Shown: one piece after another, positions 19,946 through 57,105 of the stretch
How positions within the stretch are numbered: the stretch's first letter is position 1
Layout: each line of letters opens with the position of its first letter
Origin: a candidate division WOR-3 bacterium
GTDB taxonomy: Bacteria; Hydrothermota; Tepidihabitantia; SM23-42; CAYGYG01
Reading direction: 5' to 3'
NCBI GenBank assembly: GCA_965648915.1
Contig: CBFGIV010000002.1
Coordinates: 583 to 64,582 of the forward strand
Length of the DNA: 64,000 bases
Notes under the pieces: generated by a model
Databases searched by the model: none
What the model saw: the letters and a program-made list of their open reading frames with translations, nothing else
What the model was told of the DNA's origin: nothing
Program-made: the position numbers and the translations under genes

Positions 19946-20365
19946 ATGTTAAGCTGGCTTGTGCGATGGTCGAGGATAAAGTCACCCTGGGTATTGCATT
20001 TGAATACCGGTGCCTGCAATGCCTGTGATATTGAAATCCTTGCAGCACTTATGCCGAGATTTGACCTGGAAAGGTTTGGTGTTTTATTAAAGGCAACACC
20101 AAGGCATGCGGATGTGATTGTCTGTACCGGTCCGATGACGAGGCTAAGCCGGGATAGAATGGTGAGAATCTATGAACAGGTGCCTGAACCGAAGTTTGTA
20201 GTTGCGGTTGGCGCCTGTGCAATGAGTGCTTGTGTTTATCGTGGTTGTTATAATATCATCGGTGGTATTGACCAGGTTCTCCCAGTCCATGCCTATATCC
20301 CGGGTTGTCCAGTCCGTCCGGATGCAGTGATTGATGGGGTTTATAAGTTGTTGAAGACATTATGA
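19946..20365 (+). CDS. [NiFe]-hydrogenase small subunit, NuoB/HycG/MbhJ-like
   Basis: Four Cys for the proximal [4Fe-4S] cluster (TGACNACDIE, GACAMSAC, PGCPVRP), 139 aa. Confidence 0.85.
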   Translation: MLSWLVRWSRIKSPWVLHLNTGACNACDIEILAALMPRFDLERFGVLLKATPRHADVIVCTGPMTRLSRDRMVRIYEQVPEPKFVVAVGACAMSACVYRGCYNIIGGIDQVLPVHAYIPGCPVRPDAVIDGVYKLLKTL

Positions 20366-20847
20366 TTGAGGAAGATATGAGCGAAACAGAACTTTTAGAA
20401 AAGATCAAACAGGGCTTGAAAGAAAAAATTTTAGAAATAACCAATCCCGCCTCAAGAAGAATCTTTCTAAAGGTTGATAAGAAAAACCTTGTTGAGGCAG
20501 TACAGTTTTTAAAAGAGAGATTTAATTTTTATCATATTTCTACCATCTCCGGTGTCGATCTGGGTGAGAATTTTGAAATATTATATCATCTTGCCAATGA
20601 AAATTGTGTATTGACTGTGCGGACACTGACACCGAGAAATGACCCGAAGGTACCAACAATCACCGGTGTTATCCCTGGTGCCACGCTTTATGAAAGAGAG
20701 ATACAGGATATGTTTGGAATAAAGGTTGAAGGCCATCCCAATCCAGTGCGCCTTTTGCTTGCTGATGACTGGCCTGAAGGTGTTTATCCATTGCGTAAGG
20801 ACTGGAAATTTGAGCGTCCTGAAGAAAAAATCCCGGGAGGTAAATAA
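20362..20847 (+). CDS. NuoC/MbhK-like hydrogenase subunit
   Basis: ERE..DMFGIKVEGHP motif, 161 aa, start overlapping the upstream stop. Confidence 0.8.
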   Translation: MIEEDMSETELLEKIKQGLKEKILEITNPASRRIFLKVDKKNLVEAVQFLKERFNFYHISTISGVDLGENFEILYHLANENCVLTVRTLTPRNDPKVPTITGVIPGATLYEREIQDMFGIKVEGHPNPVRLLLADDWPEGVYPLRKDWKFERPEEKIPGGK

Positions 20848-22058
20848 TGGAGGCTCAGGAGTTTAAGGTCCCAATCGGTCCACAACATCCCGCCTTAAAA
20901 GAGCCAGTAAGCCTGCGGATGACACTCGAAGGCGAGATAATTAAAGATGCAGATTTACGGCTGGGATATAATCACCGGGGTATTGAAAAACTTGCGGAAT
21001 CAAGGACTTATATCCAGAATATATATTTGACTGAACGTATCTGTGGAATCTGCTCCCATTCTCACACCACCTGTTTTGTTCAGGGGGTTGAAAAACTTAT
21101 GGAGATTGAACCAGCAAAGAGAGGCTTATATATCCGCACCCTTGTTGCTGAGTTAGAGCGTATCCATAGCCATCTGCTCTGGCTCGGTGTTGCGGGGCAT
21201 GAGGCAGGTTTTGATACATTCTTTATGTATACCTGGCGCGACCGTGAACTGGTAATGGATATCCTTGAAATCATTTCGGGTAACCGTGTCCACTATGCGA
21301 TAAATACCTTTGGCGGAGTGAGGAGAGACCTTGACGAATTACAGATAAAGAAGTGTCTTGATTATCTTGAGATTTTGAAAAATCGCACTGCATATTATGC
21401 AAATATCGGAACCAATGAGCCGACATTTGTTGCAAGGCTCGCTGGTGTAGGTAAATTACCCAAGGAAAAGGCATTAGAACTCTGTGCAGTAGGGCCGACC
21501 TTAAGAGCCTCAGATATCCCAAGGGATGTGCGCAAGGATGATCCATACGCCTCCTACGCTGAGATCCCTTTTGAGGTCTGCACTGCCGATACCTGTGATG
21601 TCCTGGGACGGGTCGTCGTTCGGGTAAAAGAATTGTTTGAGTCTTATAAGATTTGCGAATATATATTAAAGAATTTACCTTCGGGCCCGATAAAGGTAAA
21701 GGCCCCGAGGAAGGTTAAACCCGGTGAAGTAGTGAGTAAATATGAGGCACCCCGGGGTGAGAATATTCATTATATTAAGTCTAACGGCAGTGATAAACCA
21801 GAAAGATTAAAGGTGCGTGCACCGACACTTGGCAATTATGCTGCAACGATATATATGTTAAAGAATGGATTTATTGCCGATATCCCATTGATCTTTGCAG
21901 CCATTGACCCCTGTATTTGCTGTGCGGAGCGGTTGATCCAGATTGATGATATAAAGACAAAGAAATCCAAGATTATGACAATGGCGGAATTGCGTAAATG
22001 GTCAATTGAATTTTATAAAAAGAATCCGGTGAAGAAGGAAATAATATGGCCATTTTGA
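20847..22058 (+). CDS. Group-4 [NiFe]-hydrogenase large (catalytic) subunit (HycE/MbhL/EchE-like)
   Basis: N-terminal RICGICSHSH (RxCGxC) and C-terminal DPCICCAER (DPCxxC) Ni-Fe ligand motifs are both present. Complex-I NuoD lacks these motifs. A ~40-aa C-terminal extension follows the DPCxxC motif. Confidence 0.85.
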   Translation: MEAQEFKVPIGPQHPALKEPVSLRMTLEGEIIKDADLRLGYNHRGIEKLAESRTYIQNIYLTERICGICSHSHTTCFVQGVEKLMEIEPAKRGLYIRTLVAELERIHSHLLWLGVAGHEAGFDTFFMYTWRDRELVMDILEIISGNRVHYAINTFGGVRRDLDELQIKKCLDYLEILKNRTAYYANIGTNEPTFVARLAGVGKLPKEKALELCAVGPTLRASDIPRDVRKDDPYASYAEIPFEVCTADTCDVLGRVVVRVKELFESYKICEYILKNLPSGPIKVKAPRKVKPGEVVSKYEAPRGENIHYIKSNGSDKPERLKVRAPTLGNYAATIYMLKNGFIADIPLIFAAIDPCICCAERLIQIDDIKTKKSKIMTMAELRKWSIEFYKKNPVKKEIIWPF

Positions 22059-22062
22059 AAGA

Positions 22063-22188
22063 GGATATCAGGTCATCGGGGTATCGGGAAGAAGGATATC
22101 AGGTAAACAGAATATCGGGTAATTATGACCCTCTGATCTCCTGGTATTCTGATATTCACTCCCTGATAATCTGTTGTCCTGATAATCT
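22063..22188. repeat. Repeat-rich intra-operon spacer. Two 26-nt imperfect direct repeats (GGATATCAGGT-N9-ATCGGG, starting at 22063 and 22094), plus two CCTGATAATCT copies (22162 and 22178).
   Basis: Read directly from the sequence. The motifs CTGATAT and CTGATAA recur in both orientations, and GATAAT hexamers are Fur-box-like. Confidence 0.5.
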
Positions 22189-22212
22189 TGTTAACAAAAG
22201 TGGAGTTGGAAA

Positions 22213-23181
22213 ATGGATATCTTAAAGACAATACTTTATCTCCTGATCTATCCTGGTTTTCTCTTTCTCTTTCTCTATTCGACATTCTGTGAGTGGGTAG
22301 ATAGAAAATTCTATGCGCGTTTGCAGAATCGAATTGGGCCTCTATATACTGGCCCACGTGGACTATTACAGCCAATAGCCGATTTCATTAAACTGATGGC
22401 AAAAGAAGATATTATTCCGGAGAAGGCAGATCGGGGAATGTTTTCCGCATTGCCAGTCTTCGCCTTAGCGGTTGTCGCCACGGCGGCGATGTATTTACCG
22501 GTCTGGCATTATAAATCAGATCCTACTTTTAACTCATTTCCGGGCGATTTAATATTGATCCTGTTCTTACTGAGTTTACCGACCCTCGCCTTTTTCCTTG
22601 CCGGCTGGCATTCAACGAATCTATTTTCTATTGTTGGTGGTGTGCGTGTATTGACGATGCTATTCGGTTATGAGGTGCCTTTATTCTTAGCAGTATTGAG
22701 TCCGGCAATCCTGGCTGGTTCCTGGCGGCTTCTCGAGATTACCTGGTTTTATCAGAAGACCCCGCTCCTCCTCCTGGTTAATATCATCGGTTTCTTTGTT
22801 TCGCTGGTTGCCCTGCAGGCAAAACTGGAGAGAGTCCCATTCGATGTTCCTCATGCTGAGACCGAGATTGTGGGTGGGACATTCACTGAATATTCAGGCA
22901 AAAAACTTGCTTTTTTCAGATTACTCTCAGATATCGAGATGGTTGTTGGTGCAGGTTTGATTGCTGCGGTATTTTTAGGTGGTTTCCCGGGCGGACTGAT
23001 CTGGGGTGTTATAAATTTTATCATTAAGACTTTAATCGTTATCCTGCTCCTTTCTGCAATCAGGGCGGTCTGTGCCCGGATCCGGATTGACCAGGTTGTA
23101 TCTTTCTCCTGGCGTTATCTGGCACCTCTCGCAGTTCTTCAGTTATTGATTGTGATAGTTGTAAAATCTCTATCCTATTAA
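22213..23181 (+). CDS. NuoH/HyfC/MbhM-like membrane subunit
   Basis: RLQNRIGPLYTGPRGLLQPIADFIKL is a NuoH signature. 322 aa with 8 TM helices. GGAG RBS upstream. Confidence 0.85.
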   Translation: MDILKTILYLLIYPGFLFLFLYSTFCEWVDRKFYARLQNRIGPLYTGPRGLLQPIADFIKLMAKEDIIPEKADRGMFSALPVFALAVVATAAMYLPVWHYKSDPTFNSFPGDLILILFLLSLPTLAFFLAGWHSTNLFSIVGGVRVLTMLFGYEVPLFLAVLSPAILAGSWRLLEITWFYQKTPLLLLVNIIGFFVSLVALQAKLERVPFDVPHAETEIVGGTFTEYSGKKLAFFRLLSDIEMVVGAGLIAAVFLGGFPGGLIWGVINFIIKTLIVILLLSAIRAVCARIRIDQVVSFSWRYLAPLAVLQLLIVIVVKSLSY

Positions 23182-23194
23182 GGGAGAAATCAGT

Positions 23195-23581
23195 ATGAAG
23201 ATAGCCGCCTTTTTGCCGGAACTGATCAGACACATCTTCAAAAAACCGGCCACAGTTAAATATCCTTTTGAGAAACTCGAAGTCCCGAAGGATTTCCGGG
23301 GAACACCGATACTCTATCCGGAGAAGTGTATTGTCTGTTATGCCTGCCAGCGCGACTGCCCGGCTGAGGCGATTGAAATAACAACGGTAAACGAGGCCGA
23401 GAAAAAATACAAGATGGTAATTCACAATGATCGCTGTGTCCATTGTGAGCAGTGTGCCGAATCCTGTCCGGTTGATGCCATAAGATTGAATACTGAGTTT
23501 GAACTCGCTGCCTTCAGTCGATGGGATTTGAAGGCTGAGTATATCTACATCAAGGCCACCCCTAAGTCTAAAACCGAATAA
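23195..23581 (+). CDS. 2x[4Fe-4S] ferredoxin-type subunit (NuoI/HycF/MbhN-like)
   Basis: Two CxxCxxCxxxCP motifs (CIVCYACQRDCP, CVHCEQCAESCP). Confidence 0.85.
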   Translation: MKIAAFLPELIRHIFKKPATVKYPFEKLEVPKDFRGTPILYPEKCIVCYACQRDCPAEAIEITTVNEAEKKYKMVIHNDRCVHCEQCAESCPVDAIRLNTEFELAAFSRWDLKAEYIYIKATPKSKTE

Positions 23582-24291: not shown

Positions 24292-25668
24292 ATGAAGTAT
24301 TTAATCTTCATTACCTTGATTGGTTTGATTTATTCTTCGGGTGTTTTTGCTTCTTTTCTTAAACTGCCCTATCTTCAGAATCTGCTCGATACCAGTGTTG
24401 TCATCAGATGGGAGACAATAACGGCTCAGGATGGAAAGGTCCAGTATGGATTGAGCATTCTGTATGGTTTGGAAGTGACCCATCTCGATTCAACCACCCA
24501 GCATGAATTGAGGCTTCCGTCACTGATGCAGGATACTGTCTACCATTACCGAGTAATTTCCGGACCTGACACAAGCCCGGACTACACCTTTCATTCCCCG
24601 GTTAAGCCCGATAAGCCTTTCCGTTTTGCGGTCATCGGTGACACGAGAACCGACAGCCTTGCCCACCAGATGGTCATCGATCAATTGCTCAGGGGAGATC
24701 CCAGGCCCGCATTCATTCTCAATACCGGTGATCTTACGGAGAATGGTGCATCATCAGAATATCAGACATTTTTTAATATTGAGAGTTCGCTCCTTTCACA
24801 GGTCTGTCTCTTCCCGGCGCTGGGCAACCACGATCTGGGAAACATAATCAACTGGCATACCTTTTTTGCCTTACCCAATAATGAACGGTGGTATACATTT
24901 CGTTATGGCAACTCAGTATTTCACTGTATCGATAACTATTCACCCTATACCAATGATTCTCCTCAATATAACTGGCTGGTGAATGAACTCTTATCTGACA
25001 GCGCCGATCCGACCATCAGGCATATCTTTGTATTTTTTCATGATCCACCCTATTCTACAAATCTTGCCCACTCGAGCAACCTCACAATCCGGGAGTATCT
25101 CTGCCCTCTCTTTGAGCGGTTTAATATCACTTTCTCATTTCAGGGGCATAATCACTGTTATGAAAGGAGTGTGGTCAATAATATCCATTATACCGTTTCT
25201 GGTGGTGGCGGTGCGCCACTCCATTTCTTCTGGGGTTCTCTCGAGCCCTGGTCCGCCTACCGGGAGACAACTTATGAATTTGTTCTGATCGATATCTGTG
25301 GTGATACAATCTCCTCTCAGGGGATCAAACCGACCGGTGAGACTTTTGATCACTTTTCTATAATTCATCGGCCAGAGCCCGATAGGACCAACCGGTTAAT
25401 CCTCCCGTATAACCCCCGACTCAGAATTTTCCCCAATCCCGCGACCGGGGAGATCAGAATTACCTTTGCTCTTCAGACTCAGGGAATGGTGGATATTTCA
25501 ATTTACAATAGTTCAGGACAGAAGATCGGTTCGGTTATTAAAAAAAATCTTCCGGTCGGTCTTCACAAACTGATCTGGCGCAAGAAGTCTCTTGCCAGTG
25601 GAACTTATCTCTGCTTCTTGAATACACCAACCTTTTCTCAATCGGTCAGTTTCAGATTTATTAGATAA
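24292..25668 (+). CDS. Calcineurin-like metallophosphoesterase (purple-acid-phosphatase-like) with T9SS C-terminal sorting domain
   Basis: Metallophosphatase motifs (FAVIGDTRTD, NTGDLTENG, GNHD, GHNHCYER) and a CTD (RIFPNPATGEIRITF...IYNSSGQKIG...GTYLCFL). Confidence 0.75.
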   Translation: MKYLIFITLIGLIYSSGVFASFLKLPYLQNLLDTSVVIRWETITAQDGKVQYGLSILYGLEVTHLDSTTQHELRLPSLMQDTVYHYRVISGPDTSPDYTFHSPVKPDKPFRFAVIGDTRTDSLAHQMVIDQLLRGDPRPAFILNTGDLTENGASSEYQTFFNIESSLLSQVCLFPALGNHDLGNIINWHTFFALPNNERWYTFRYGNSVFHCIDNYSPYTNDSPQYNWLVNELLSDSADPTIRHIFVFFHDPPYSTNLAHSSNLTIREYLCPLFERFNITFSFQGHNHCYERSVVNNIHYTVSGGGGAPLHFFWGSLEPWSAYRETTYEFVLIDICGDTISSQGIKPTGETFDHFSIIHRPEPDRTNRLILPYNPRLRIFPNPATGEIRITFALQTQGMVDISIYNSSGQKIGSVIKKNLPVGLHKLIWRKKSLASGTYLCFLNTPTFSQSVSFRFIR

Positions 25669-32230: not shown

Positions 32231-32263
32231 TATAATAAAGATTGATCGGCAATTTAGCAAAAA

Positions 32264-32348
32264 TGCCGGGAGGGGGATTTGAACCCCCACGGTCTTTAAA
32301 GACCAGAGGATTTTAAGTCCTCTACGTCTACCATTCCGCCATCCCGGC
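32264..32348 (-). tRNA. tRNA-Leu (anticodon TAA), type II with a long variable arm; CCA not encoded
   Basis: Manual fold of the reverse complement: acceptor GCCGGGA/UCCCGGC with discriminator A, anticodon loop CUUAAAA, T-arm GGGGG-UUCAAAU-CCCCC, variable arm GGUCUUUAAAGACC. Confidence 0.85.
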
Positions 32349-32792
32349 AAAAAAACTGAAGCCGAAATCTGCTATCAGAATTACTTCCCTTTGATTATAA
32401 CAAAAAGTGACAGTTTGTCAACGAATCGATTTAAATCAAAAATAATCTTACCGAAAATAGATAATTTAATCAAATTAGAGTATCTTCCCAATACTTGAAA
32501 ATATAACCCACACTTTCAGCAGGATGAAAAATAAAAAATTACTTATAAATCACCAACTTTTCAATATCATCATCTTTCTTTATAAAATAAACCCCAGAAT
32601 TCAAATCAATGTCATTCTTGCCTTTATCTATTTTTCTAATTTTTCTTCAGCAACGCCGATAACCATTGAATCCGCAGGGATTACAGCGGAGTCAGATATT
32701 TATTTTTTACACTTTAATGTTTATCCAGCGTTTTTAAGTATCTAAAATTCTGCACAACGATCCGCCATAAAGCGTGGCGTACTGACACTACA

Positions 32793-34058: not shown

Positions 34059-35549
34059 CTATTCTCCTTTACGATTTTTTGCTACTATATTTTGATATGC
34101 TTCTTCATATCTATCCCATTTTTGTTTTTCTTTAGGTTGGTAAACTTTGATATCAAATGAATTCCTGACAATCGCCCGCAGTTGTCCAAGAGACTTTATT
34201 CTTTCTTTTGCTTTTGCCTGGATAAGAAGGTTGCCAATTGCCGTTGCCTCAACTGGTCCGGCATAGACGGTTAAGCCAGTAGCATCCGCAGTGAACTGGC
34301 AGAGCAAAGAATTCAAGGCACCACCACCAATTATATGAATACAGGAATAATCAGTCTGACTTATTTCTCTGACTTCGTTCAAGACTTTCCGATAGGAAAA
34401 GGCAAGGCTCTCCAGAATACAACGTACAAACTGTCCGATATTTTCAGGTGTCTTTTGACCGGTCTTTATACAAAACTCAATTATCTCCTTGGGTAAATTA
34501 TTACTGTATAAAAATCGAGGATCATAGGTATCAATCAAGGAGCGAAATCTCTCTTCGTTTTGGGCAAGTCCAATTAACTCTTCATAAGAATAAATCTTAT
34601 TTTTATCCCATTCCTTTTTGCAATTATGTAATATTCCGAGCCCCATTATATTCTTTAAAAGACATATCCTTCTTTCTACACCACCTTCATTCGTAAAATT
34701 ATAGTAATAGGTCTTATCGTTTATGACCGGTCTGTCCGACTCTATCCCGAGTAGTGACCAGGTTCCAGAACTGATATAGATAAAATCCTTATCCAATGCC
34801 GGGACTGCGGCAATCGCGGATGCGGTATCATGGGATGCAACTGCAATCACTGTTGTATCCTTCAATCCGGTCATTGATGATACCTCACTATTTATCCTGC
34901 CAATACTGGTGCCGGGATTGATGACCGGCGGGAATATATCGGGACTGACACCGAGCACCTCAATGATTTTTTCATCCCATTCGTTTTTATTGATATTATA
35001 AATCTGGGAGGTTGTTGCAAAGGTGAATTCAGCAAATTTCTTTCCGGTCAGAAAATAATTTATGATATCGGGTATAAAAAGGAGTTTTGCGGCCTTTTTG
35101 ATCAGCGGGCTATCGTTGACCACCATCGCATAGAGTTGATACAGGGTATTTATTTCCATAAATTGAATCCCGGTACGTTGATATATCTCTTCTTTAGAAA
35201 TCTTGCTGGTGAATTTCTCAACCATTCCCCTGGTCCGGCCGTCGCGGTAGGAAAATGGCGGTGCAACCAGATTGCCATTTTTGTCTAAGAGCCCGAAATC
35301 AACACCCCAGGTATCAATCCCGATTGAGACAGGCTTTTTCGTTATTTCTTTAGCGCAAATTGACAAACCTTTTAAGATTTCGCGATAAAGATTTTCAATA
35401 TCCCAATGCAAGCCATCCGGCATCTGGATTGTATCATTGGCAAAACGATGCAATTCTTTTATTGTCAATCTGCCTTTTTCTTCAAGTATCCCTGCTATCA
35501 CCCTGCCACTACCTGCACCAAGGTCAATACCGAGATAAGTATCAGACAT
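34059..35549 (-). CDS. rhaB: Rhamnulokinase (FGGY carbohydrate kinase)
   Basis: FGGY N-terminal motif YLGIDLGAGSGRV. 496 aa. Adjacent to rhaA. Confidence 0.8.
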   Translation of the reverse strand: MSDTYLGIDLGAGSGRVIAGILEEKGRLTIKELHRFANDTIQMPDGLHWDIENLYREILKGLSICAKEITKKPVSIGIDTWGVDFGLLDKNGNLVAPPFSYRDGRTRGMVEKFTSKISKEEIYQRTGIQFMEINTLYQLYAMVVNDSPLIKKAAKLLFIPDIINYFLTGKKFAEFTFATTSQIYNINKNEWDEKIIEVLGVSPDIFPPVINPGTSIGRINSEVSSMTGLKDTTVIAVASHDTASAIAAVPALDKDFIYISSGTWSLLGIESDRPVINDKTYYYNFTNEGGVERRICLLKNIMGLGILHNCKKEWDKNKIYSYEELIGLAQNEERFRSLIDTYDPRFLYSNNLPKEIIEFCIKTGQKTPENIGQFVRCILESLAFSYRKVLNEVREISQTDYSCIHIIGGGALNSLLCQFTADATGLTVYAGPVEATAIGNLLIQAKAKERIKSLGQLRAIVRNSFDIKVYQPKEKQKWDRYEEAYQNIVAKNRKGE

Positions 35550-42691: not shown

Positions 42692-44269
42692 ATGAAGAAG
42701 TTTGGCATACTCTTTTTGGTTGGTATGATATCAATAATTGCCGGCGCACCAATTGAATACCTTGTCAGGATTGAATTAAATCCCCAGGGGAGAATATACG
42801 ACCTGGCGGATATGCAGATCTGTATTATTGATGAACTGGATGGTTTCTGTCTGGCAATAATCAGCGATGGTGAATGGGCACTTCTCGACCTGCATAATTT
42901 CAAGTATAAGATACTCGACACCAGTCCCCGGAGTAAGAGTTACTACATCGTCTATCCGGCGCAATGGGTCCCGATTGATAACTTAAAGCCTTATGGTGAT
43001 ATTCTCGATTATGATGGTCAGGCAGTTATCTTCCGAACTGAAGAGAAGAATATCTTTTTCTTAAATATGATGCAGGTCGAATTGAAGAAGGTCTTCTTCG
43101 ATCCGATGGTGATAAAACGCGATTATCAGAGTTTCACTGCCCCACCTTCAAGTCCTTTGATCGATACGCTGATCCAGCAGATGGTCAGCCAGGTCTCGTC
43201 CGATACCCTTCTGTCATTTCTCAATATCTTAACCAAGAACTTCGGTATCAGGTATTCGACCTATCGCGGTTGCTCGCTGGCGGTGCGCTGGTTCAGAGAT
43301 AAATGTCGCAGTTATGGAGCTGACAGTGTCTATCTCCATCCCTATCGGACTAGTTATGCGGAAAATTGCATCGCAATCAAGCGCGGAATCAGATATCCCA
43401 ACTGGAAGCGATATTATGTAATCTGTGGTCATATCGATGCGGTTTCGGTTTCGCCCGGTGCCGACGATAATGGAAGTGGAACGGCCTGCGTGCTTGAGGC
43501 GATTCGGATTATGCGCCGTTACCGGTTTGAGAATGGTATAAGGTTTATCACCTTCACCGGTGAGGAGCAGGGTCTTTATGGGAGCGCGGCCTATGCAAGT
43601 AATGCTCGAACCCAGGGCGACAGTGTCCTGGGTGCACTCAATTTTGATATGATTATGTATCAGCAGACCAATCCCGATACATTAAGACTGGCGATCGGAC
43701 GCACCCGGGCAGATACTGTGCTGTATAATACCTTCAAGGCAGCAGTCGATACCTATACGACCCAGCGGACGATTTGTCAGAGCCTCGGGTTTGGCTCTTC
43801 GGACCATGCCTCTTTCTGGAATAATGGTTATCCAGCATTCTGTGGTATTGAACACCACTATACGAGTAATCCCCATTATCATACTTCACACGATTCAGTG
43901 GGTGCTCCCGGCTATTCAATTCCATTCCTGACCAGTTGTGTCAAGGCAGCGATTGCGGGTCTGGCGCGGCTTGCAGTGCCAATGGCAGCAGGTGTTGAAG
44001 AACTAACTATCCCAGCAGGGGAGATCCCGAAGTTAAAGGTATCACCCAATCCTGCCCGGACCTGGGTTAGATTTCAGATATCAGATCACAGGGATAAAAG
44101 TTTGAGCATAAAGATCTACGACATCACCGGCAAACTGGTCAGAGAGACTGACCAGTTGATCTGGGACTTGCGTGATGATTCGGGTCGACGTCTCCCTGCC
44201 GGTATCTATATCTGCCGGCTGAATACAGAAAGGGAAGAATCGACAGCAAAAATCATTCTGCTGGATTAA
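42692..44269 (+). CDS. Peptidase M28 (Zn aminopeptidase) with T9SS C-terminal sorting domain. The ORF track starts at 42638; the ATG at 42692 has an AGGAGG RBS.
   Basis: M28 Zn-ligand region (GHIDAVSVSPGADDNGSGTA, FTGEEQGLYGS) and a CTD (KVSPNPARTWVRF...KIYDITGKLVR...GIYICRL). Confidence 0.8.
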   Translation: MKKFGILFLVGMISIIAGAPIEYLVRIELNPQGRIYDLADMQICIIDELDGFCLAIISDGEWALLDLHNFKYKILDTSPRSKSYYIVYPAQWVPIDNLKPYGDILDYDGQAVIFRTEEKNIFFLNMMQVELKKVFFDPMVIKRDYQSFTAPPSSPLIDTLIQQMVSQVSSDTLLSFLNILTKNFGIRYSTYRGCSLAVRWFRDKCRSYGADSVYLHPYRTSYAENCIAIKRGIRYPNWKRYYVICGHIDAVSVSPGADDNGSGTACVLEAIRIMRRYRFENGIRFITFTGEEQGLYGSAAYASNARTQGDSVLGALNFDMIMYQQTNPDTLRLAIGRTRADTVLYNTFKAAVDTYTTQRTICQSLGFGSSDHASFWNNGYPAFCGIEHHYTSNPHYHTSHDSVGAPGYSIPFLTSCVKAAIAGLARLAVPMAAGVEELTIPAGEIPKLKVSPNPARTWVRFQISDHRDKSLSIKIYDITGKLVRETDQLIWDLRDDSGRRLPAGIYICRLNTEREESTAKIILLD

Positions 44270-44287
44270 GAGATCATCGATCAATCA

Positions 44288-44320
44288 GGCCCCGCTATTT
44301 TCCCGGCGGGGCTTTTTATT
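44288..44320 (+). terminator. Rho-independent terminator after the M28 peptidase gene
   Basis: GCCCCGC-tattttcc-GCGGGGC stem-loop followed by TTTTTATTT. Confidence 0.6.
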
Positions 44321-56225: not shown

Positions 56226-56346
56226 TTTCGTTAAAAACGCTCTATCCGATAAAAGGTTTGTCGGGAATAATACCGAATGCCTCCTGGTATAATTAGATAG
56301 CAATGAGTGCCTCGGATTAAGCGGGGCACTCAGAAAGGAGGCTAAA

Positions 56347-57105
56347 ATGCGCGCCAATTTTAACCAAACCGATCTGGCGGATTTAGGTACCCGGAGCCCA
56401 GTAATAAAGGTGTATACCTCCAATCTCAAACGAGCCTTTTACTCAACCAATAGCCTGATATTTCTTATCATCATTCTGGTCTTTGCCTATATCAAATACC
56501 ACCAATGGCAGTATCATCGATGGCGTGATCTACAGGTAAAGAGAACAGAAACCAGAACAATAATTATTGAACCCTGGCGAATTGGTCCCCCGCCATCGAT
56601 AACCGGAAATGGCGGTGATGGAGGAATTGGGAATGGTACAGGCGGAGTTAAGTCGGTCGCACCGGCGGTCGGTGTTCCCAAACCAGTGCCTGATGATAAG
56701 GCAGTTCAAATCACAATACCAACCCAATTCGACATTGCCGGAACCGGCATCTTCCAGGGTAATGGCGGGATAGGTTATGGGGTGGATATCAAAATTCAGG
56801 ACATCCCTGATATTGATACCTTTATCCCCCATGAGGTTGCTCCCCGGGTGATTTCAAAGCCACCGTTGATCTATCCCCAGCCTGCGGTCCTGATGGAACA
56901 GGAAGGCAAGGTCTGGATCAAGGCCCTGGTCGACCTTGATGGTTCAATAATGAAGGCAGTGGTGTTGAAGAGCTCAAGTTTTCCCCTGCTCGACAGTGCG
57001 GCAGTTGCAAATATTTACGGGTGGCGATTAAGTCCAGCCCTGCAGAATAAAAATCCAGTGCGGGTCTGGGTAACGATGCCGATTGAATTCAAACTGCAGA
57101 AGTGA
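56347..57105 (+). CDS. tonB: TonB family energy transducer, tandem paralogue
   Basis: Same architecture as the upstream gene and about 55% identical to it. Own extended -10 (TGGTATAAT, 56285-56293) and a GAGTGCC/GGCACTC hairpin (56305-56331) in the leader. Confidence 0.75.
   Translation: MRANFNQTDLADLGTRSPVIKVYTSNLKRAFYSTNSLIFLIIILVFAYIKYHQWQYHRWRDLQVKRTETRTIIIEPWRIGPPPSITGNGGDGGIGNGTGGVKSVAPAVGVPKPVPDDKAVQITIPTQFDIAGTGIFQGNGGIGYGVDIKIQDIPDIDTFIPHEVAPRVISKPPLIYPQPAVLMEQEGKVWIKALVDLDGSIMKAVVLKSSSFPLLDSAAVANIYGWRLSPALQNKNPVRVWVTMPIEFKLQK

Follow-up and report, generated by a model that had tools for sequence, protein, structure and literature searches.

The DNA analyzed here is a 64-kb stretch (the window), which is also the whole sample of its source genome, and the element in question is a 154-nt spacer inside a hydrogenase operon. 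By its Pfam content, this operon is of the group-4 membrane-bound [NiFe]-hydrogenase/Mrp type, with three Proton_antipo_M genes together with NuoB-, NuoC-, NuoD/NiFe-, NuoH- and NuoI-like genes. The spacer separates the large-subunit gene, whose translation shows the Ni-binding motifs RICGICSHSH and DPCICCAER, from the NuoH-like membrane-subunit gene: the TGA of the former ends at 22058 and the latter begins at 22213. The remaining junctions of the operon in the window measure -8 to +13 nt (the value of -229 at the junction of mrpD3 with the next gene is an artefact of the start picked in the list of open reading frames, ORFs), and the spacer is the sole insert of the operon. A first-pass annotation of this DNA had already described the gap and the tightness of the other junctions, and our measurements agree with it. 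It had proposed that the gap holds a multimeric transcription-factor binding array, an internal promoter or attenuator, or a decayed miniature repeat element. We found that the spacer is an insertion that splits an old 13-nt overlap between the two genes, that it folds as a long hairpin, and that it is spanned by an ORF whose repeat units avoid stop codons (Table 1).

We fetched 160 related loci from genomes and metagenomes (given below with L numbers), 154 of which hold both the large-subunit and the NuoH genes. In 135 of these 154 there is no spacer, and the large-subunit stop lies inside the NuoH start within an exact 13-nt overlap, ATGGCCnTTnTGA. Inserts of 100 to 194 nt were found in 14 fetched loci, all belonging to the clade of the window and with large-subunit identities of at least 77%; the closest relatives (90-93% identity) are labelled candidate division WOR-3. 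One locus inside the 92% clade, L002, retains the 13-nt overlap without any insert, and L006 presents a 28-nt spacer that exactly matches the element of L082 at its right end. Junction sequence of 13-17 nt is found on both sides of the inserts, with both copies under coding constraint. In the window, each copy is preceded by a putative ribosome-binding site, and all long inserts of this junction show a purine-rich site at the position of the second one. The miniature element of the first-pass annotation comes close: the insertion is absent from 135 of 154 relatives, and in sister genomes its junction is held by other dispersed hairpin families. The word 'decayed' does not fit, as both the hairpin and the open frame are kept. 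The annotation had also asked for the spacer to be compared among relatives: apart from the 135 loci without it, the spacer is kept in four orthologues (L001, L003, L083 and L085), in which the outer stem is conserved.

The repeats that the first-pass annotation had pointed out are all there. The two 26-nt direct repeats 31 nt apart lie at 22057 and 22088 (77% identical) and are included in the left arm of the hairpin, while the two copies of CCTGATAATCT 16 nt apart belong to the right arm, with exact matches only at 22162 and 22178. At up to one mismatch, this motif has six matches in the spacer, a number reached by no shuffle. The core CTGATAW occurs five times, twice on the minus and three times on the plus strand, so that the spacer holds 5 of the 40 matches of the 64 kb, when about 0.1 would be expected per 154 nt. 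What had gone unnoticed is that the repeats on the left are reverse complements of those on the right, with 31-nt terminal inverted repeats (22089-22119 and 22162-22192) that are 77% complementary. The core hence appears in both orientations because the spacer consists of the two arms of one hairpin. The true repeat period is 8 nt, TATCAGGN in the left arm and NCTGATAN or CTGATNNN in the right arm. Using Tandem Repeats Finder, we detected no comparable arrays in the window, and a blastn-short search gave no second copy of the spacer in it.

The hairpin is stable, with a z-score of about -5 against mononucleotide shuffles for the sense fold. When the flanks are included, the energy is -56.7 kcal/mol (z = -3.2 against dinucleotide shuffles, with 0 of 200 shuffles as stable). 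The minus strand reaches -37.5 kcal/mol, antisense folds being 12-15 kcal/mol weaker than the sense ones. When the whole window was folded in sliding segments of 150 nt, the spacer ranked first after GC correction (z = -4.3), above the sole tRNA. By comparison with L085, the closest orthologue of like architecture, 44 of the 50 pairs are kept; among these, both bases have changed in compensation in one pair, and a single side has changed in seven, mostly from G.U to A-U. Substitutions affect 15% of the paired and 31% of the unpaired positions. Left-arm changes from A to G (TATCGGG for TATCAGG) also retain pairing, as G.U. Regarding known RNA families, Rfam at the gathering threshold found only the tRNA in the whole window, and at a permissive threshold it gave only chance-level matches in 21000-23500 (best E = 0.13, 22.5 bits versus a threshold of 86 bits). 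This single tRNA and single Rfam match is a tRNA-Leu (anticodon taa) at 32263-32349 on the minus strand, which is also the second-strongest fold of the scan. Two other structured intergenic regions, both on the plus strand, were looked at: 44287-44320 is an intrinsic terminator of the ordinary kind (GGCCCCGCU...GGCGGGGCC and then a U-run) 3' of the ORF ending at 44269, and 56304-56332 is a compact G+C-rich leader hairpin beside the Shine-Dalgarno (SD) sequence of the ORF starting at 56347. Neither these two, which are unrelated to the insert, nor the tRNA resembles it.

The bridging ORF had also escaped notice. It spans the entire spacer in the frame of the relic ATG. In the remaining sense frames there are 4 and 6 stops; the probability that the required frame would be open by chance is 0.034 (dinucleotide shuffles). 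An equivalent ORF from the relic start is present in all 15 long inserts of this junction, whatever their family, with an ATG start in 14 of them, and it is also seen in the 28-nt remnant of L006, where it stops at +13. Relative to the NuoH ATG, the stops of the 15 long inserts fall at +13 in eight cases, at +10 in one, and 1-12 nt before it in six. At other junctions, the ORF starts at -3 (ATGA), +2/+3 or -12 relative to the upstream stop and ends approximately between -12 and +13 of the next ATG, mostly covering at least 90% of the gap. Altogether, 54 of the 61 inserts found at eight junctions have a fully open sense frame; shuffles expect 20.6, and the antisense control, which retains the repeat structure, gives 32 of 61. 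The CCGAAAT family, one of the sister families described below, uses a single reading frame at every site (NSKSEIRNSKQ...GFRASDFGF). Copies of the insert families that lie in non-coupled intergenic DNA are not bridging.

Given the 8-nt period, every third right-arm CTGAT unit would present a TGA in the bridging frame. Across the five TATCAGG-type orthologues, CTGAT is found in 16 of the 17 right-arm units of frames 0 and 1, where it is harmless, and in none of the seven units of frame 2, the TGA frame, which read CTGGT in three cases and CTGTT in four (hypergeometric P ~2e-5, uncorrected for shared ancestry). In the window, the TGA-frame units are CTGGT at 22141 and CTGTT at 22171, and the corresponding unit of L083 is CCGCT. 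The repeats of the first-pass annotation are thus imperfect because the TGA-frame units are altered; stop-codon avoidance in the bridging frame, or transitions that preserve G.U pairs, largely account for the imperfections. Single-base bulges, with T-T mismatches, sit opposite CTGTT, so the frame prevails over pairing where both conflict.

Table 1. Genes, signals and arms of the hairpin at the large subunit/NuoH junction (window coordinates)
Feature	Position	Strand	Remarks
Large-subunit gene, group-4 [NiFe]-hydrogenase, 403 aa	20847-22058	+	Upstream neighbor; C-terminus ...WPF-TGA; Pfam Complex1_49kDa and NiFeSe_Hases
GAAGGA, putative ancestral NuoH ribosome-binding site	22034-22039	+	7 nt 5' of the relic ATG; read from the sequence
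Relic 13-nt stop/start overlap, ATGGCCATTTTGA	22046-22058	+	Old NuoH ATG and live large-subunit TGA
Bridging ORF, 59 codons, MAILKEDIRSSGYREEGYQVNRISGNYDPLISWYSDIHSLIICCPDNLVNKSGVGKWIS	22046-22225	+	Relic ATG to TAA (22223-22225); overlaps both neighbors by 13 nt
Imperfect hairpin, 134 nt	22059-22192	+	50 pairs (17 GC, 25 AU, 8 GU); -50 kcal/mol as sense RNA
Left arm	22059-22124	+	8-nt TATCAGGN-type units: TATCAGGT, CATCGGGG, TATCGGGA, ..., TATCAGGT, AAACAGAA, TATCGGGT
Right arm	22133-22192	+	8-nt CTGATNNN-type units, including both CCTGATAATCT copies
GGAG, SD-like, putative	22202-22205	+	7 nt 5' of the present NuoH ATG; outside the hairpin
Second copy of the 13-nt overlap, ATGGATATCTTAA	22213-22225	+	Live NuoH ATG and bridging-ORF stop
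NuoH-like membrane-subunit gene, 322 aa	22213-23181	+	Downstream neighbor; Pfam NADHdh, E = 1.6e-83

At least four unrelated insert families occupy the large subunit/NuoH junction: the TATCAGG type (window, L001, L003, L083 and L085), the CCGAAAT type (L004, L008, L081, L082, L084 and L086), the GGTTATA or CGTTATACG type (L005, L007 and L087), and the type of L096, which has another hairpin nested within. All of them fold as long hairpins whose arms are tandem units of 7-9 nt. The insert type is discordant with a neighbour-joining tree of the large-subunit and NuoH proteins, and the sister loci L081 and L083 bear different families. This discordance implies turnover, recombination, or repeated insertion and excision. 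By mapping every operon protein of the window onto close relatives, we found inserts of 60-360 nt at the g19297/g19618, g19618/nuoB, nuoB/nuoC, large subunit/NuoH and NuoH/NuoI junctions, in combinations that differ by genome. The same junctions are tight in most outgroups (L088 to L095), L096 and L097 being those with inserts at most junctions. The CCGAAAT family was found at three or more junction types, at sites outside the operon and also in L090; the GGTTATA (L005) family was found also at the nuoB/nuoC junction of L001, the L096 type at three junctions of its own locus, and the CACCGAG family at two junctions of L097. Given this recurrence at several junctions and outside the operon, these four families are dispersed repeats.

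The arms of the CCGAAAT hairpin are made of AAATCCG and CGGATTT heptamers. Copies of it lie at L001:6318-6520, L004:2322-2450 (NuoH/NuoI) and L090:1659-1729, and at the g19297/g19618 junction in L003:2356-2494, L008:2643-2749 and L087:1918-1953; in the window, the junctions matching these copies are empty. L096 and L097 (78% large-subunit identity) have hairpin families of their own, with arms CACGAAA/TTCGTG, CGGATT/AATCCG and CACCGAG/CTCTGTG, located at L096:8466-8541, L096:9908-9989 and the large subunit/NuoH junction, and at nuoB/nuoC and NuoH/NuoI in L097. In L007, what looks like a 361-nt gap at NuoH/NuoI translates as the C-terminal part of NuoH, a gene that seems broken, be it by a stop or by a frameshift; candidate explanations are a pseudogene, an error of sequencing and recoding. 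A one-armed ATCAG array at the nuoB/nuoC junction of L086 proved to be a variant of the GGCAATT family. We also scanned viral contigs for TATCAGNNTATCAGNNTATCAG, and the 39 matches were all unrelated tandem or iteron-like phage repeats (e.g. L164 and L173). At L173:7400-7610 (IMGVR_UViG_3300001533_000464), three CTGATAGA units face three TATCAGTC units about 60 nt apart, nested in an inverted repeat of about 45 nt with an iteron- or operator-like look; this is a phage contig unrelated to the window.

Besides, two side observations concern other genes around the operon. In the region 20362-20379, the NuoC-like ORF of the window begins at an ATGA overlap (20362), while NuoC in relatives aligns only from residue 6, the second in-frame ATG of the window at 20377. 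The first five codons may be a leftover of similar junction dynamics and not a part of NuoC. About 0.7 kb 3' of the last hydrogenase gene, a plus-strand gene at 24292-25668 encodes a protein with metallophosphatase and Por_Secre_tail domains, the latter for C-terminal sorting in type IX secretion.

Taking these results together, we consider it likely that the spacer is a miniature hairpin-forming insertion, kept because ribosomes read through it, so that the two genes would remain translationally coupled. The insertion split the 13-nt overlap, whose sequence now stands on both sides of it. It would then be co-transcribed with the operon and probably translated: after finishing the large subunit, ribosomes would begin anew at the relic ATG using the old ribosome-binding site, translate 59 codons through the hairpin, melting it, and terminate at the TAA 10 nt beyond the NuoH ATG. 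In this way, the ancestral termination-reinitiation geometry would be recreated and NuoH would stay coupled to the large subunit. The element would be tolerated by meeting two constraints, namely keeping a frame open and ending it at the next start. Most likely, we are dealing with selfish or neutral DNA, and probably not with a regulator needed by the operon. The insertion, the hairpin, the geometry of the ORF, the avoidance of stops and the turnover among relatives are seen directly in the sequences, whereas co-transcription, translation, coupling and the mobility of the TATCAGG family are inferred. The proposed reading is consistent with what is known of coupling: its efficiency drops fast with the stop-to-start distance, and structure just 3' of the stop inhibits it unless translated (PMC12548453).

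One could argue against this interpretation on several grounds, which we gather here. All the relatives are metagenome-assembled. No TATCAGG-type copy was found outside the large subunit/NuoH junction, either in the window or in 1.63 Mb of related loci, even though the search included a periodic-array scan for (TATCAG NN)x3; the mobility proposed for this family is thus suggested by analogy with its sister families. The duplication of 13-17 nt is long for the target-site duplication of a transposase, and sister families at other junctions share only about 4-6 nt around the start codon. A one-time duplication in tandem, on which elements landed repeatedly and from which L002 lost its insert by precise excision between the direct repeats on either side, is as plausible as independent target-site duplications. 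Regarding the open frames, the counts of 54/61 and 15/15 are not independent and overstate the number of events, which is perhaps 5 to 10, because many of the inserts are orthologues. In addition, the CCGAAAT units are stop-free in every frame, which inflates the open frames to an extent that can be seen in the antisense figure of 32/61. Finally, the sense fold is more stable than the antisense one in 46 of the 61 inserts, and this bias could come from a G>C strand composition and not from selection on the RNA.

The confinement of the TATCAGG type to one junction also fits an origin in place, in which a tandem duplication of the junction would have been followed by slippage and template switching, building the 8-nt arrays and their complement without the element ever being mobile. 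The sequence GGATATC is common to the first left-arm unit and the NuoH start, the 16-nt flanks TTTGAAAGAGGATATC and TTGGAAAATGGATATC are 81% alike, and the number of units varies among the TATCAGG-type orthologues. However, the same junction holds in sister genomes three other families that are demonstrably dispersed. A derivation of the right arm from NuoH codons 10-17 was also set aside, as the two agree at only 60% over 30 nt and the orthologues show no such resemblance. We therefore regard formation in place as unlikely, although it deserves to be kept in mind.

The stability of the hairpin and its conservation in four orthologues, with eight G.U pairs and the sense fold favoured in most inserts, could instead speak for an adaptive RNA element: a decay barrier, an RNase III processing site or a ribosome brake that sets the ratio of the upstream hydrogenase/antiporter subunits to NuoH and NuoI, the ORF being secondary. 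Intercistronic REP hairpins do stabilise upstream mRNA segments, according to work cited in PMC3184786. Yet the insert is dispensable: L002 lacks it, L006 has only 28 nt left, and sister genomes carry unrelated sequences in its place. Moreover, the operon inserts occupy differing junctions in each genome with no fixed pattern. The frame beats pairing at the conflicts opposite CTGTT, and strand composition could also account for the fold asymmetry. An RNA function selected for in this way seems to us quite improbable.

Could the 59-codon ORF be a genuine small-protein gene, for instance for an accessory hydrogenase subunit? An SD-like site precedes its ATG, its frame is open and stops are avoided, and it was called by a gene caller, giving the one identical entry at NCBI. 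Nonetheless, the peptide matched nothing but itself among 5.8 billion proteins, and no Pfam family was found in it or in two sister peptides. Its orthologues differ by indels of repeat units, sister genomes encode unrelated peptides at this position or none, and its sequence is dictated by the hairpin repeats. We give this possibility very little credit.

As for the Fur/Nur (or other multimeric regulator) array and the internal promoter or attenuator of the first-pass annotation, neither was borne out. The best match in the spacer to the 19-bp inverted repeat of the Fur box (GATAATGATAATCATTATC) is 12/19, equalled by 30% of 154-nt windows, and the two GATAAT hexamers, 16 nt apart, are not conserved, reading GATTAC, GATAGC, GATAAC and GATGAC in the four orthologous spacers. 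The spacer contains no plus-strand sigma-70-like site and, within 22059-22212, no intrinsic terminator (a G+C-rich stem followed by a U tract), the sequence 3' of the hairpin being CUUGUUAACAAAAG. The motifs, whose recurrence had been proposed as a check for a regulon or a dispersed repeat family, were found nowhere else in the window or in the 1.63 Mb of related loci. Hence, even though the CTGATAW core occurs five times in 154 nt and the GATAAT hexamer twice, a DNA binding array or internal promoter is scarcely credible, all the more so as DNA binding leaves the strand asymmetry and the frame-dependent unit changes unexplained. The best Fur-box-like match of the window lies elsewhere, at 35384-35402 (16/19, GATAAAGATTTTCAATATC), inside a long minus-strand ORF (34059-35549), and is probably due to chance.

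If the spacer is indeed an insertion that persists by being translated, then for annotation an apparent regulatory array would become foreign or duplicated DNA sitting harmlessly in a translationally coupled operon, and the 59-aa 'gene' of the public record is best taken as a by-product of the repeats and not as a protein of interest. The comparative set is a natural experiment on translational coupling: it covers eight junctions with 61 inserts, and genomes sharing over 90% identity can differ in having the empty or the filled allele. Termination-reinitiation keeps its geometry in this set (stops at -12 to +13 relative to the following ATG) despite unrelated sequences. The frame-dependent change from CTGAT to CTGGT or CTGTT clearly bears the mark of selection for letting ribosomes pass a hairpin of -50 kcal/mol. 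More tentatively, and with the balance of our judgment still against it, WOR-3-like bacteria may harbor an undescribed class of translated palindromic intercistronic elements. This class would comprise many unrelated hairpin families of 60-250 nt, made of tandem 7-9-nt units and colonising the stop/start junctions of operons, each as a mini-cistron from the old start to the new one, and the spacer of the window would be one member. In that case, selfish DNA could move into operons with tight coupling, here at as many as five junctions of a single hydrogenase operon, and leave the coupling intact. If this held genome-wide, the principle of the MIRU would reach an uncultivated and distant phylum as well as elements shaped as hairpins.

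In order to contextualize the element, we compared it with known systems; searching the literature for such elements in WOR-3, or for translated hairpin inserts, gave only the precedents of MIRU, RPE, REP and heptamer repeats. MIRUs (Supply et al. 1997, as presented in PMC3184786) are intercistronic and co-transcribed, and have an ORF that overlaps both flanking genes. Like them, the spacer lies between co-oriented genes of one operon, in which junctions are around -8 to +13 nt, and the start of its ORF overlaps the upstream stop while its stop overlaps the downstream start, here by 13 nt each (22046-22225). Filled and empty sites among relatives and imperfect inverted repeats are further features in common. 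However, MIRUs are units of 40-100 bp in tandem arrays, G+C-rich and actinobacterial, and form a single family with about 40-50 copies per genome, whereas here we have one long hairpin of 8-nt units, in an unrelated phylum, at one site only and with no detectable sequence relationship (the MIRU consensus itself being left out of the comparison).

In shape, the spacer resembles MITEs (Correia/NEMIS, ERIC, RUP, Chunjie), which have about 100-200 nt, terminal inverted repeats, a long hairpin when co-transcribed and presence/absence polymorphism, and some of which carry ORFs or fuse to genes. It differs from them in that neither dispersed copies of its family (in the window and 1.63 Mb of loci) nor a defined short target-site duplication were found, in its internally periodic arms of 7-9-nt units, and in the constraint of the bridging ORF, which is not described for MITEs. 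REP/BIME and REPIN elements are extragenic palindromes, often intercistronic, that affect the stability of upstream mRNA, and in REPINs two halves in inverted order make up a hairpin of some 100 nt (PMC3116915, PMC3337134). REPs, in contrast, are recognised by a core of about 25-35 nt that is conserved, by their hundreds of copies and by the RAYT transposase that goes with them, and they are not described as translated. Closer in another respect, the RPEs of Rickettsia are palindromic, measure about 105-146 nt and survive by keeping the frame open at the insertion site (PMC3184786). They lie within protein-coding genes and form part of the host protein, whereas the insert described here stands between genes as its own mini-cistron. 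The cyanobacterial STRR, reportedly short tandem heptamer repeats (Mazel et al. 1990), recall the tandem-unit arms. The TAACTGA heptamer repeats of Beggiatoaceae, Cyanobacteria and Bacteroidetes are likewise tandem 7-nt units, intergenic and near start codons, and a post-transcriptional role has been proposed for them (PMC4679880). In both cases, the difference is that these are mostly direct arrays of a single heptamer, genome-wide, with no complementary array and no bridging ORF reported. By comparing all these systems, the element of the window seems closest to MIRUs in logic, to MITEs and REPINs in shape, and to the RPEs of Rickettsia in staying in frame. Since it lacks both the copy number and dispersal that define the known mobile-element families and any sequence relationship to them, we treat it as a variant of these families and not as a member.

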